A stretch of 64,000 nt of DNA, taken from the NCBI RefSeq assembly GCF_011045215.1, contig NZ_CP049201.1; one strand, written 5' to 3'. The position numbers and the translations under genes were made by a program. Shown piece by piece: positions 59,678 to 64,000 of the stretch (position 1 is its first letter; each line of letters begins with the position of its first letter). The notes under the pieces were generated by a model. It was not told the origin of the DNA. It made no database searches and saw nothing but the letters and a program-made list of their open reading frames with translations. The stretch comes from Escherichia coli. Lineage in GTDB: Bacteria > Pseudomonadota > Gammaproteobacteria > Enterobacterales > Enterobacteriaceae.

Positions 59678-62600
59678 TCAGAACGTTTTCATACACAATG
59701 GGGATGAACGTAACGCAATCGAGAGATGACCATCTCCAGGATAAAATATCATACCGCTGTTGAGCCAATAATGTTCAGCGCGAAATATTCCGTCATACAA
59801 AGTCAGATTACCATATTCACCCCATAAGGAACCTACTTTTCGCGGGACAGCACCGCTAGTTGTACTCCCCACTAAATCCGCACTAGACGGTAATATATAA
59901 CCATTACCAATGCAATATGAATTCATATCACTCCATGATTCCTGAATTATCCCTTGAGGTATAAACCATTTCTGAAGTGAGAATTTATATGTAACTTTAT
60001 TCCCTTTATTGCTTTTCGGTGTTCCTGTAATAGTAACTTCTTTTTTGATGATAAATTCTAAAGTCACCACACCATTGCTATCAACCTGAATACCCTGTAT
60101 GCCACTTGTCCAATTATAATCCGTATTTTTCATATTATGGGTTAATATCAGAGTGAATTTAGCGCCATCAAATCCTGTTTCTGGAAAACCATCTGCCGCC
60201 CTGAATTTTGCACCATTAACACTAAGCGACTCGACTTCCACAAAAGGTAGGATGGTATAGGATGGTTGCCCGTTTACATACCAACCATTAATATGTAGAT
60301 ATGAGTTTAAGTTTTCTCCTTCTTTGTAGGCCCTATAGGTACGCTCATATCTGCCTTCACCCACTGACACCCATTTAGCCCCCTCTTTCTTTTCCACATT
60401 TTGTAAGAACACCGCATCCTCTGTCAGCAATTCCAGACCGTTATCAACCGGATTACCAAATTCATCAGATAATAAAACACTAACAGGTATATCCGCCCCA
60501 GCTACCACTAAAACTTCGCGTATACGAAGCTGTGAACGAAGCATACTTACTTCACCTGGTTTAATCATGTAGCTATTTGAATAATTGGCATCGCTCCAAC
60601 CAGACATCTTCAGTTGCGCATTCAAATTCAATTCCGCAAAATGCGCCATATACTGTCTTTGATATTGCCCATTGCCGTTGTATATCCAATTATTGCCTTG
60701 AATAGAATCAGCGTTCCTGACTTGTACGTTTTCCTCATTAAGCTGAACGACACCATCAGTAATAAAGTTACCCTGGGCATCTTTAAGAACAACGGTTACC
60801 GTTATGATATCCCCAGCGACATATTTCGTTTTGTCCGTGACAATCGTGGATTGAGTTTTTTCCGCCGCACCTGGTTGTATTCCGTATAACGAGGACTTAA
60901 TCTCCGTTGCCCATGTTTTTAATTTCAGACTGGCAACCAGATTTTCCTCGGCAACCCATGCTGTCCAGACAATGGTATATTCACCATTATTCTGCTCGAC
61001 CCACTGCATAGAATCGGGAGTTGCGCCACCTACCGCGAAATTATCGATATAAGACTCGATGACTTCTGATGTCAGTCCTAAAGCAGGGTTACCAAACTCA
61101 TCCCGCAACGTTATTGTGACGGTTAATGGCTCCCCGGCGATATATGCCGATTTATCTGTCCTGATAGCAGAATTTGCCTGCACCGGAGCACCACTGTGGA
61201 TGGAATAACTCTCTGATTGTTTACTGCTGCCCCACTCGGGCAACGTCAGCGTCGCGTGGTGAGAGTCTCCCGCCATTTGCGCCGACCATGTAGCAGTATA
61301 AACACCGGCAGTTTCAGACCACTCTCCTGAACGTACGGCTCCTTCCACTGTTACGTTATCACCAGACAGTAAGGACTCGCCCCCTTCAACCAGGTTACCG
61401 TGCGCATCTTTCAGCGTCACGGCGACGGTTATAGTCTCGCCAGCGGTGTATGCGTTTTTATCCGTGGCGATAGTTGATGTGGCTTGCGCCGGAGAACCGG
61501 ACTGTATGTCATAGCGATCTGACGTTACGCCAACACTCCACGACTGCAATTGCAGGTTGGCGTGCTGATCGTTACCGGCAATCGTCGCCATTCGGGTTGT
61601 GGTATACACGCCACCTGATTCAACCCAGCTTCCCGTTTCTGACGGGTCGGTGCCATCCACCGTCAGCACACCATTAGCGGCTAACTGTGAAGCTGCACCG
61701 ATTACCAGATTATCGAACGCATCCCGGAGCGTTACCGTGATGGTGATGGTCTCTCCAACCGTGTAGTTAGACTTATTTGTTTCAACGGTTGAAGTGAGCT
61801 GCAATGCGTCACCCGGTACAAAGGTGACGTTCTGGCTCAGGCTGCTGCTGTTGATGCTGGCAGTGACTGTACTGGTTCCGGCGGTCTGGCTGGTGACACT
61901 GATTTCCACCGTGCCGTCCGGCCCTGTGATGACCGTCGAAGTGACCGTTGCGCCGTTACCTGCCAACACGCTGACCGTCTGTCCGGCAAGCGTATTACCG
62001 TTAGCATCGGTGACCTTCACCTGCAGCGTATTCGCCGTCGAACCGTCTGCCACTGAGTTATCCCGGATGACCTCCAGTTCAGCGATCTTCGCCGTCCTGA
62101 CATCGGCGACAAACGTCACGTTCTGGCTCAGGGTGCTGTTGTTGATGGTTGCAGTGACTGTACTGATTCCTGCCGTCTGACTGGTGACAGAGATCTCCAC
62201 CGTCCCGTCCGACTGCGTGGTGACCGTCGGGGCAACCTTTGCGCCGTTGCCTGCCAACACGCTGACCGTCTGCCCGGCAAGCGCATTGCCGTTAGCATCG
62301 GTGACCTTCACCTGCAGCGTATTCTCCGTCGCACCGTCTGCCTCTGAACCATCCTTAATAACCACCAGCTCCGCGATCTGCGCCGTCCTGACATCGGCGA
62401 CAAACATCACGTTCCGGCTCAGGCTGCTGTTGTTGATGGTTGCCGTGACTGCACTGACTCCCGCCGTCTGGCTGGTGACTGAGATCTCCACCGTGCCGTC
62501 CGGCCCTGTGGTGACCGTCGAAGCGACCGTTGCGCCGTTGTCCGCCAACACGCTCACCGTCTGCCCGGCAAGCGCATTCCCGAACTTATCGGTCACCCTT

Positions 62601-64000
62601 ACCCGCAGCGTGTTCGCCATCGAACCGTCTGCCACTGAGCCGTCCTGCGTCACCACCAGCTCAGCGATCTGCGCCGTCCTGACATCCGCGATAAACGTCA
62701 CATCCCGGCTCTGACTGCTGCTGTTGATACTGGCGGTGACTGTACTGGTTCCGGCGGTCTGGCTGGTGACTGAGAGCTCCACCGTGCCGTCCGGCCCTGT
62801 GATGACAGTCGAAGCGACCATTGCACTGTTGTCTGCCGTCACGCTGACCGTCTGTCCGCCAAGCGTATTACCGTTAGCATCGGTGACCCTCACCCGCAGC
62901 ATGTTCGCCATTGCGCCGTCTGCCACTACGCCGTCCTTAATGACCACCAGATCAGCGATCTGCGCCGTCCTGACATCGGCGATAAATGTCACGTCCCGGC
63001 TCAGGCTGCTGTTGTTGATGGATGCAGTGACAGTACTGATCCCCGCCGTCTGGCTGGTGACACTTATCTCCACCGTACCGTCCGGCTCTGTGATGACCGT
63101 CGGGGCAACCGTTGCACCGTTGCCTGCCAACACGCTGACCGTCTGTCCGGCAAGCTCATTACCGAACGCATCGGTCACCCTCACCCGCAGCGTGTTCGCC
63201 ATCGCACCGTCCGCCTCTGAACCATCCTTAATAACCACCAGCCGCGATCTGCGCCGTCCTGACATCCGCAATAAACGTCACATCCCGGCTCAGGCTGCTG
63301 CTGTTGATGCTGGCAGTGACAGTACTGATCCCCGCCGTCTGGCTGGTGACACTGATTTCCACCGTGCCGTCTGGTTCTGTGGTGACCGCCGGAGACACCG
63401 TTGCGCCGTTGTCCGCCAACACGCTGACCGTCTGCCCGGCAAGCGCATTGCCGAACGCATCGGTCACCCTCGCCCGCAGCGTGTTCGCCGTCGAACCGTC
63501 CGCCTCTGAACCATCCTTAATGACCACCAGATCCGCGATCTGCGCCGTCCTGATATCGGCGATAAACATCACGTCCCGGCTCAGGCTGCTGTTGTTGATG
63601 CTGGCAGTGACCACACTGGTGCCCGCCGTCTGGCTGGTGACACTGATTTCCACCGTGCCGTCCGGGCCTGTGATGACCGTCGGAGACACCGTTGCGCCGT
63701 TGTCCGCCAACACGCTGACCGTCTGCCCGCCCAGCGCATTACCGAACGCATCCGTCACCCTCACCCGCAGCGTGTTCGCCGTCGAACCGTCTGCCACTGA
63801 GCCGTCCTTAATGACCTCCAGATCAGCGATCTGCGCCGTCCTGATATCGGCGATAAACATCACGCTCTGGCTCAGGCTGCTGTTGTTGATGCTGGCAGTG
63901 ACCACACTGGTGCCCGCCGTCTGGCTGGTGACAGAGATCTCCACCGTGCCATCCGGCTCTGTGATCACCGTCGGGGCAGTCGTTGCGCCGTTGTCCGCCA
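59678..64000 (-). CDS. air: Intimin/invasin-family adhesin with tandem bacterial Ig-like repeats and C-terminal lectin-like domain (Air-like); 5' end off-window; frame disrupted near 63240
   Basis: ORFs 63228-63968 and 59678-63271 are one gene split by a 2-bp deletion; repeated about 97-aa units such as DVRTAQIADLVVIKDGSEADG...VTDAFGN...TVEISVTSQTAG; C-terminal domain with Cys pair. Confidence 0.8.
61790..64000. repeat. Tandem 291-bp coding repeats (Ig-like domain units) within the adhesin gene
   Basis: Motif GCGATCTGCGCCGTCC recurs at 62082, 62373, 62664, 62955, 63244, 63535, 63826: period 291 bp except one 289-bp unit. Confidence 0.9.

Follow-up and report, generated by a model that had tools for sequence, protein, structure and literature searches.

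Copy-number variation in the Ig-domain stalk of the Escherichia coli adhesin Air, and a frameshifted deletion junction in one sequenced allele

Introduction

A stretch of 64,000 nucleotides from Escherichia coli (contig NZ_CP049201.1, assembly GCF_011045215.1), referred to here as the window, ends inside a gene containing tandem 291-bp repeats. A preliminary description made from the sequence alone took these repeats for at least seven near-identical units encoding Ig-like domains of an adhesin, and proposed that they expand and contract by recombination, vary adhesin length between strains and are difficult to assemble. This raises the question of which adhesin the array belongs to, how its repeat number differs between strains, and whether one irregular unit, at which the reading frame changes, records a real mutation or a collapse during assembly.

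Results

The array is part of the air/eaeX/iatC gene

Air belongs to the type Ve (inverse autotransporter) adhesins of E. coli and is encoded beside eilA in the selC-B/eip island, and the array is the known, copy-number-variable Ig-domain stalk of this surface protein (also called EaeX or IatC), lying in the 3′ part of air/eaeX/iatC. Strains A16 and ETEC6335 and annotated air loci match the window at 100% identity in the air tail (2139 nt) and in eilA, bearing out the earlier view that the repeats run through an adhesin. The locus order is also that of annotated air loci, with air convergent with eilA, adjoining eicA-eipBCD and situated between nepI and yicS near selC (nepI falls outside the window), and the gene, locus and domain order match those of EAEC 042 (air) and SMS-3-5 (EcSMS35_4024). 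Megablast to annotated air/iatC beside eilA gave matches in 752 of 5426 complete E. coli genomes. The 5′ end of this air copy, expected to encode an N-terminal signal peptide, a LysM domain and the beta-barrel, lies beyond position 64000; orthologous loci with an identical tail and eilA encode PF11924 IAT_beta, and the A16 Air protein has the expected N-terminus. Conserved flanks of the window are 99.9–100% identical to E. coli strains; a figure of 96.5% identity, which had suggested a non-E. coli Escherichia, reflected a variable island segment within the compared sequence. Previous work reported that eilA activates air (PMC7058095), that IatC is surface-displayed and linked to biofilm formation (PMC6714894), and that adherence and biofilm are reduced in an eaeX mutant, with control by eilA (PMC7058095). 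The features of the locus are as follows.

57931..59628, plus strand: eilA, HilA-family regulator, convergent (tail to tail) with air; 100% identity to annotated loci
59641..59664, minus strand: terminator-like palindromic hairpin between the convergent air and eilA stops; candidate from a consensus scan only
59681..60244, minus strand: C-terminal tip, invasin D4-D5-like (Ig-like plus C-type-lectin-like domain); Pfam Invasin_D4, phmmer
60245..61816, minus strand: five divergent Ig-like domains, ~105 aa each; Pfam Big_1/Invasin_D3, FdeC 4E9L match
61817..63998, minus strand: 291-bp tandem array of air/eaeX/iatC, a partial unit and U1–U7; Tandem Repeats Finder, unit alignment, Pfam, structure model

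Each unit encodes one Ig-like domain

Every 291-bp unit codes for a single Big_1 beta-sandwich domain of 97 residues. Pfam Big_1 was matched with E=2e-102 and 2e-49, together with Invasin_D3, and an AlphaFold model of U6+U7 (pLDDT 80) consists of two seven-strand beta sandwiches, for which the top PDB fold matches (Foldseek) were intimin D0-D1, invasin, InvE and InvD; the Ig-like assignment of the preliminary description is confirmed by these matches and by the model. The five divergent Ig-like domains start at 61816, 61501, 61195, 60874 and 60559, and the tip beyond them matches Pfam Invasin_D4 (E=1e-12) and, by phmmer, residues 296-461 of invasin 1CWV (E=5e-32). We infer the rod function and surface reach of the Air stalk, in which the domain chain would form a rod between the outer-membrane barrel and the distal part of the protein, namely the five divergent domains and the invasin-type lectin-like tip. 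Invasin from Yersinia pseudotuberculosis (1CWV) and intimin (6TPL, 1F00) follow the same type Ve plan of a Big_1 rod capped by an Ig/C-type-lectin-like superdomain; however, they contain 4-5 dissimilar Ig domains, whereas Air has a long array of similar units.

The array is regular and moderately divergent

Tandem Repeats Finder returned a single array (61820-64000, period 291, 7.5 copies, 86% matches, score 2899), and self-identity in the window at lag 291 was 0.74, far above chance and above the 0.21-0.31 seen at neighbouring lags. The units lie head to tail, seven of them full and one a half unit cut by the window edge, and the array runs on past position 64000. Alignment in the protein register places them as follows, all on the minus strand.

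63998-63852: U0, partial unit
63851-63561: U1
63560-63270: U2
62981..63269: U3, 289 bp; hybrid of PapM-32-1 unit 7 (at least the first 7 nt) and unit 16 (nt 39 on)
62980-62690: U4
62689-62399: U5
62398-62108: U6
62107-61817: U7

The self-comparison therefore upholds the 291-bp tandem array and the count of at least seven repeats, with a clear period, yet the units are moderately divergent rather than near-identical, since pairwise identity within the window is only 81-91% for DNA (mean 85%) and 72-89% for protein (mean 81%). Two details of the preliminary description also change: the array ends at 61817, not 61790, and the uniform length of 291 bp holds for every full unit except U3, which has 289 bp. 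Runs of tens of identical bases are common to the units, and dS between array units is ~0.34. The unit length amounts to whole codons (291 = 97 x 3), dN/dS among the window units is 0.34, and none of the 128 distinct array units from ten strains and the window contains a stop codon. It is the minus-strand frame that carries the Pfam matches and shows the dN/dS of 0.34, and the plus-strand open reading frames over the array (61794-62180, 62184-62714 and 62724-63509) were dismissed as antisense by-products of GC-rich periodic sequence.

Repeat number differs between strains by whole units

In 19 other E. coli genomes we counted 7, 11, 12, 17, 18, 19, 20, 21, 22 and 23 units. Counts differ by whole units only, the air coding sequences of the compared genomes differ in length by exact multiples of 291, and all alleles compared share an array start at gene nt 3451. 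Mapping unit by unit also located contraction junctions: unit 11 of L26 consists of the 5′ part of unit 11 and the 3′ part of unit 23 of Combat11I9, and unit 6 of OkiPb01695 combines parts of PapM-32-1 units 6 and 7. Both hybrid units are clean, single-crossover products, indicating in-register recombination between units. Recombination or replication slippage between in-register units would delete or duplicate whole units, and such loss and gain leads to natural alleles carrying 7-23 units. The array in this way combines the marks of a copy-number-variable coding repeat, namely a unit of whole codons, whole-unit differences and hybrid units at contraction junctions. The proposals of expansion and contraction by recombination and of strain-to-strain differences in adhesin length are supported by these data, yet this interpretation had already been published (Fox 2020), and variation in Big-repeat number in eaeX has been reported (PMC7058095). 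In contrast, Goh et al. found no evidence for variability of tandem-repeat number in IatC (PMC6714894); our unit-by-unit mapping shows that IatC repeat number does vary, which corrects that statement and agrees with PMC7058095.

A nine-unit deletion junction shifts the reading frame in U3

In the 20-unit array of PapM-32-1, units 4, 5 and 6 correspond at 100% identity to the partial unit, U1 and U2 of the window, and units 16-20 correspond at 98.6-100% identity to U3–U7. U3 itself starts as unit-7 type and continues as unit-16 type, the change falling in a shared stretch of 31 nt that contains the 2-nt loss. Because this stretch, TCAGGACGGCGCAGATCGCGGAGCTGGTGGT, is identical in PapM-32-1 units 7 and 16, and because U3 switches type across it, the junction of a nine-unit deletion must fall at 63234..63262; the junction sequence of the window allele is CAGATCGCGGCTGGTGGTTATTAAGG. 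The deletion measures 2,621 bp, against 2,619 bp for 9 x 291, because the join lost two extra bases, and with U3 at 289 bp rather than 291 bp the reading frame shifts inside the array and runs into a TAA stop at 63230-63228. The features at the junction, all on the minus strand, are as follows.

63231..63998: upstream air frame, 256 codons without a stop from the window end, spanning U0 (partial), U1, U2 and the beginning of U3
63234..63262: crossover interval, the 29 nt left of the 31-nt TCAGGACGGCGCAGATCGCGGAGCTGGTGGT
63241..63243: frameshift site, where GCGGAGCTGG has lost 2 nt (AG or GA) and become GCGGCTGG
63228..63230: premature TAA stop in the upstream frame, made by the frameshift
59678..63241: downstream air part in the other frame, 1187 codons and a stop at 59678-59680, with no interrupting stop

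As written, air is therefore not a single uninterrupted reading frame; it is a disrupted allele (pseudogene), whose stop removes five array units together with the five divergent Ig-like domains and lectin-like tip beyond them. We consider it highly probable, taken together, that the gene is correctly identified, that the array is organised as described and that this allele represents a contraction of nine units plus 2 nt. On this reading the window allele derives from an array of 20 units of the PapM-32-1 or A16 kind, by a deletion that joined unit 7 to unit 16 and lost two extra bases; we infer the mechanism of this deletion and the 5′ part of this air copy. The predicted product would retain the barrel; its stalk would be shortened, to six array units provided that the 5′ part beyond the window is PapM-like, and the distal stalk and the binding tip would be missing. 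Other disrupted air alleles occur in PCN033, through a 1-nt deletion, and in D8, through an internal stop codon. The PCN033 deletion lies at unit nt ~158, away from the site in the window, which argues against a frameshift hotspot common to strains.

The junction was absent from every other genome searched, comprising 5,426 complete E. coli genomes and GTDB representatives, and from the ten contigs carrying eilA that were examined; an exact 38-mer across it had no matches in genome contigs, and look-ups of the exact downstream protein, begun from three possible starts, gave no match. Among the genomes searched, the window allele alone has the unit 7/16 junction with its 2-nt loss and frameshift. 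In a k=31 simulation, the unitig holding the junction was 104 nt long, which is too short for gene indexing, and the junction is therefore not findable in short-read contigs by gene look-up.

Real mutation or assembly collapse

We lean slightly towards a real mutation as the source of the two-base loss over an artefact of assembly. Homology-guided recombination normally yields exact, in-frame products, as it did in L26 and OkiPb01695, so a 2-nt loss at the junction needs a second error. Such an error might instead belong to the assembly, with a true array that is intact at ~20 units, units 7 to 16 collapsed and the 2-nt loss left as an uncorrected consensus error, and we regard this as a serious contender, if a somewhat doubtful one. 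Short reads do fail to cross the array, as the preliminary description anticipated: a short-read (Logan) contig from run SRR11014969 is 100% identical to the window over 47966-61863 (13.9 kb) and stops 47 nt into the array, within U7. The remaining units are base-perfect against independent genomes, and the sole defect sits exactly in the crossover interval, where a false join would be spanned by no genuine read and short-read polishing would fail, leaving the sequence perfect elsewhere; the uniqueness of the junction among all searched genomes points the same way. However, the units differ at 9-19% of positions, so that long reads are normally placed in register, a graph-path collapse would join exactly, without a 2-nt loss, and scattered indels are absent from the rest of the array and the flanks. 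Whole-unit contractions of similar size also occur in other finished genomes, for example in L26 relative to Combat11I9. A real mutation is further favoured by the base-perfect agreement of the remaining units with independent genomes, by the 13.9 kb of flank shared without difference with the independent short-read contig, and by the disrupted air alleles of PCN033 and D8.

A GATC Dam site is a known context for nanopore errors, and loss of the AT of a GATC was considered as a basecalling error. This is excluded by GCGGAGCTGG in A16 unit 16, OkiPb01695 unit 15 and PapM-32-1 units 7 and 16, since with the orthologous units reading GCGGAGCTGG the lost bases are AG or GA, outside GATC.

Other readings of the frameshift

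Two unrelated real events, an exact in-frame contraction of nine units followed by an independent 2-nt deletion in the same 31-nt stretch, appear improbable. In-frame contractions are common and small independent disruptions of air exist, as in PCN033 and D8, but the chance of a random 2-nt deletion falling in the interval is ~1% (31 of ~2,180 nt of visible array, or of 4,323 nt of visible gene), and no relative with an in-frame 11-unit intermediate was found. Less probable again is a slow switch, distinct from simple-sequence phase variation, in which recombination out of register by 1-2 bases turns Air off and gene conversion, drawing on the many neighbouring intact copies of the junction sequence, could turn it back on. 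A simple-sequence contingency locus was rejected, as the site GCGG[AG]CTGG has no homopolymer or short-motif tract and the junction occurs in one genome. Least probable of all is that the frameshift is bypassed, by a programmed +1 frameshift at GGU GGU UAU UAA G, or reversed by gene conversion as a recombination-based on/off switch: an SD-like GGUGG precedes the stop and ~10 intact copies of the 31-nt stretch in the vicinity could act as conversion donors, but a slippery P-site codon and a simple-sequence tract are absent, tRNA-Tyr on UAU would presumably be unable to re-pair on AUU, which led us to reject the programmed +1 frameshift on sequence grounds, and with the junction confined to a single genome nothing indicates selection for the frameshift.

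Discussion

The air gene and its behaviour are ordinary and already known. The invasin-like protein of Yersinia ruckeri, as far as it is described where cited in PMC6714894, is likewise an inverse autotransporter with a long, misassembly-prone array of similar Ig domains, whose units are there called almost identical, whereas Air units have diverged (dS ~0.34). This divergence makes each unit recognisable and deletions mappable.

The annotation of the window genome should record air as disrupted, or else its assembly should be checked again. Scoring presence or absence of air as a virulence marker would overlook that this sequence, as written, cannot yield the binding tip. More generally, the length of this known E. 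coli surface adhesin is determined by the array, its repeat part differing more than threefold between strains (7-23 units). The invasin structure reportedly gives roughly 4 nm per Ig domain; on that figure, alleles of 7-23 units would differ by tens of nanometres in reach.

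The repeat array belongs to the adhesin gene air

The preliminary description placed the repeats in an adhesin, which we can identify by Megablast annotation and locus order as air (also eaeX or iatC). Sequence matching 59600–64000 was found by Megablast in 752 of 5,426 complete E. coli genomes, where the regions are annotated as air (inverse autotransporter adhesin EaeX/Air) or iatC and adjoin eilA. All locus tables give the order nepI, air, eilA (convergent), SipD-like, hypothetical, SipB-like, chaperone, yicS, nlpA, yicL, setC and tRNA-Sec, and the window carries the matching gene set from setC (48822) through air, with a terminator-like hairpin (59641–59664) between the convergent air and eilA stops. 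The signal peptide, LysM and barrel of orthologues are encoded in the 5′ part of air, and this part lies beyond 64000. Strains A16 and ETEC6335 match the 2,139-nt air tail and eilA at 100% identity, and strain PapM-32-1 matches the eip genes and setC–yicS at 99.9%; on these identities the sequence belongs to E. coli. IatC is surface-displayed and its expression promotes biofilm (PMC6714894); eilA acts as an activator of the island, and mutants in eaeX show less adherence and less biofilm (PMC7058095, summarising Sheikh et al.). The gene and its behaviour have already been described, and the earlier interpretation is supported.

The 64-kb window contains no tRNA genes, and selC itself therefore lies outside it. 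Its first 12,000 nt (1–12000) hold island-type cargo, and a two-partner secretion/contact-dependent inhibition pair follows:

1497–2912: Tn5-like transposase
4349–7030: SF1 helicase with DUF2726
7657–8874: ImpA_N/VasL type VI secretion-related protein
9300–11126: NERD-UvrD helicase
13568–25096, − strand: CdiA-like protein (3,078 aa; ESPR, TPS domain, haemagglutinin repeats, PT-VENN pre-toxin domain) and ShlB/FhaC-type transporter (579 aa)

The array consists of diverged Ig-like units under constraint

Tandem Repeats Finder reported a single array at 61820–64000 (period 291, 7.5 copies, 86% matches, score 2899), and self-comparison of the region confirmed the periodicity, with an identity of 0.74 at lag 291 vs 0.21–0.31 at nearby lags. 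In protein register, numbering full units in the coding direction, the 3′ part of air is laid out as follows:

63998–61817, − strand: array, partial unit and U1–U7
63998–63852, − strand: partial (half) unit, clipped by the window end
63851–61817, − strand: seven full units, U1–U7
63269–62981, − strand: U3, 289 bp instead of 291
Starts at 61816, 61501, 61195, 60874 and 60559, − strand: five divergent Ig-like domains after the array, ~105 residues each
60244–59681, − strand: C-terminal part, matching invasin residues 296–461

The array is thus confirmed as seven full tandem units of a 291-bp period, and calling them highly similar is fair; "near-identical" is wrong, as full units share 81–91% of DNA positions (mean 85%) and 72–89% of protein positions (mean 81%) in pairwise comparison. 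Their proposed Ig-like nature is borne out by Pfam, with Big_1 (E=2e-102 and 2e-49) and Invasin_D3 matched by both reading-frame pieces of the gene and Invasin_D4 also by the downstream piece, as well as by an AlphaFold model of U6+U7. This model shows a pair of seven-strand beta sandwiches (mean pLDDT 80) and, among solved structures, best matches intimin D0-D1 (6TPL), invasin (1CWV), intimin D00-D0, InvE and InvD. The C-terminal part resembles invasin D4-D5, an Ig plus lectin-like superdomain.

Because the window units have a dN/dS of 0.34 at a dS of ~0.34, and none of the 128 distinct units from ten strains and the window contains a stop codon, the units are old and diverged, with constraint acting at the protein level. 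The array is also a sharp GC3 island (GC 61%; GC3 74–76% both in the window and in the divergent alleles L009, L008 and L004). GC3 is 51–58% in the 3,450 nt preceding the array and, over the length of the tail (59678–61816), drops from 53% to 31%, and the GC of eilA and the eip genes is 35–38%. The island might stem from recombination within the array, through GC-biased gene conversion, or from a separate origin.

Unit number varies between strains

Scanned with a profile derived from the window units, 19 other genomes proved to carry between 7 and 23 array units.

Array units per genome (three-digit L-numbers are further loci; L26 is a strain)
7: L016
11: L26
12: PCN033
17: L011, L012, L014, L019, L020
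18: OkiPb01695, Santai
19: L015
20: A16, ETEC6335, PapM-32-1, D8, L018
21: L013
22: F9792
23: Combat11I9

The array starts at gene nt 3451 in all ten RefSeq genomes from which the full air gene was fetched, and the 2,139-nt tail was explicitly seen to follow it in eight of them, the array start being confirmed in the other two. Intact coding sequences measure 8790, 10827, 11409, 11991 and 12282 bp, with length differences that are whole multiples of 291. In L018 (OU349849.1), two array units are spaced by 294 nt and the Air product has 3,803 aa vs 3,802 aa in A16, which looks like an in-frame 3-nt insertion within the array.

L26 and Combat11I9 have identical flanking proteins and 11 vs 23 units; their units 1–10 are the same, and L26 unit 11 joins Combat11I9 unit 11 to unit 23 by one clean crossover. 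Similarly, OkiPb01695 unit 6 is a hybrid of PapM-32-1 units 6 and 7. Between-unit recombination or slippage, in register, has left a direct trace in such hybrids; together with the unit counts, they bear out the predicted recombinational expansion and contraction. Repeat-number variation was previously noted for eaeX (PMC7058095); our counts contradict the statement that there is no evidence for it in IatC (PMC6714894).

The window allele as written carries an out-of-register contraction

Translation reveals a break that the preliminary description did not note: the reading frame entering at the window end runs into a TAA (63230–63228), and the repeat-coding frame picks up in another phase, stop-free to the normal stop at 59678–59680. 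The frame breaks because two bases are missing from U3 (GCGGAGCTGG to GCGGCTGG at 63241–63243). In the 20-unit PapM-32-1 array, units 4, 5 and 6 match the partial unit, U1 and U2 at 100% identity, and units 16–20 match U3–U7 at 99.0, 100, 98.6, 100 and 100%. U3 begins as unit-7 type (GCGGATG) and is of unit-16 type from nt 39 on; between the two types lies a 31-nt stretch identical in units 7 and 16, which contains the 2-nt loss. From this mapping and the switch within U3, the window array is therefore a PapM-32-1/A16-type array minus 2,621 bp (nine units and two bases). By our arithmetic, a random 2-nt deletion in the visible array has a ~1% chance of hitting the 31-nt interval, and contraction and frameshift therefore almost certainly arose together.

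This junction, an out-of-register contraction specific to the strain, is the sole new detail at the locus; either air is inactivated by it or it signals an error in the assembly. We lean slightly towards a real single event. Independent genomes reproduce the remaining array units, and 13.9 kb of flank, base for base, and unit contractions of comparable size occur naturally. Broken air alleles are also present in other strains: in the finished genome of PCN033 (L006, 8246–17325), array unit 1 lacks 1 nt at ~nt 158, a site different from the window's, and the CDS is split as a result; in that of D8 (L010, 9534–20957), codon 1006, still ahead of the array, is an in-frame stop. The window is moreover a mosaic, A16-type at all 11 sites discriminating A16 from PapM-32-1 between 62415 and 58738, and PapM-32-1-type at ~90 of 95 sites in 56838–48189 and again in the units at 63270–63998. 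Such a pattern fits the import of a segment in which unit 16 of the donor had paired with unit 7 of the recipient at the left crossover, and the A16-like block may have its left edge at the junction.

That the junction is an assembly artefact is a serious, if less probable, alternative. Homology-guided joins are normally exact, and if the array was collapsed, the false join would be the one spot beyond repair by polishing. The junction is also unique to the window: the best matches of a 101-nt junction probe all keep the two extra bases, the best contiguous match elsewhere to the half unit through U3 reaches only 95.6%, and the exact junction was found neither among GTDB representative genomes nor in ten further loci read. 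In line with the suggestion that such repeats are hard to assemble, the array is not crossed by short reads. The sole public contig with the window's exact EipC protein, a short-read Logan contig (L021, SRR11014969_423), probably from the same or a very close strain, is 100% identical to window 47966–61863 over 13,898 bp and stops 47 nt into U7; its other end (47966) falls within a DUF4942 ORF (47185–48027), where related genomes diverge. Two independent real events, which would need the ~1% placement, are improbable, and some exotic explanation more so.

Predicted consequence of the frameshift

If the single event is real, the product would terminate a few residues into the hybrid unit. It would keep the secretion barrel and a shortened stalk, which would count six array units were the 5′ part PapM-like, and would be missing its lectin-like tip along with five array units and all five distal Ig-like domains. 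The downstream 1,187-codon part lacks a signal peptide and is not expected to be made. Truncated inverse-autotransporter passengers are generally still exported, as in intimin display constructs, and a cell with the frameshifted air would probably display a tip-less stump.
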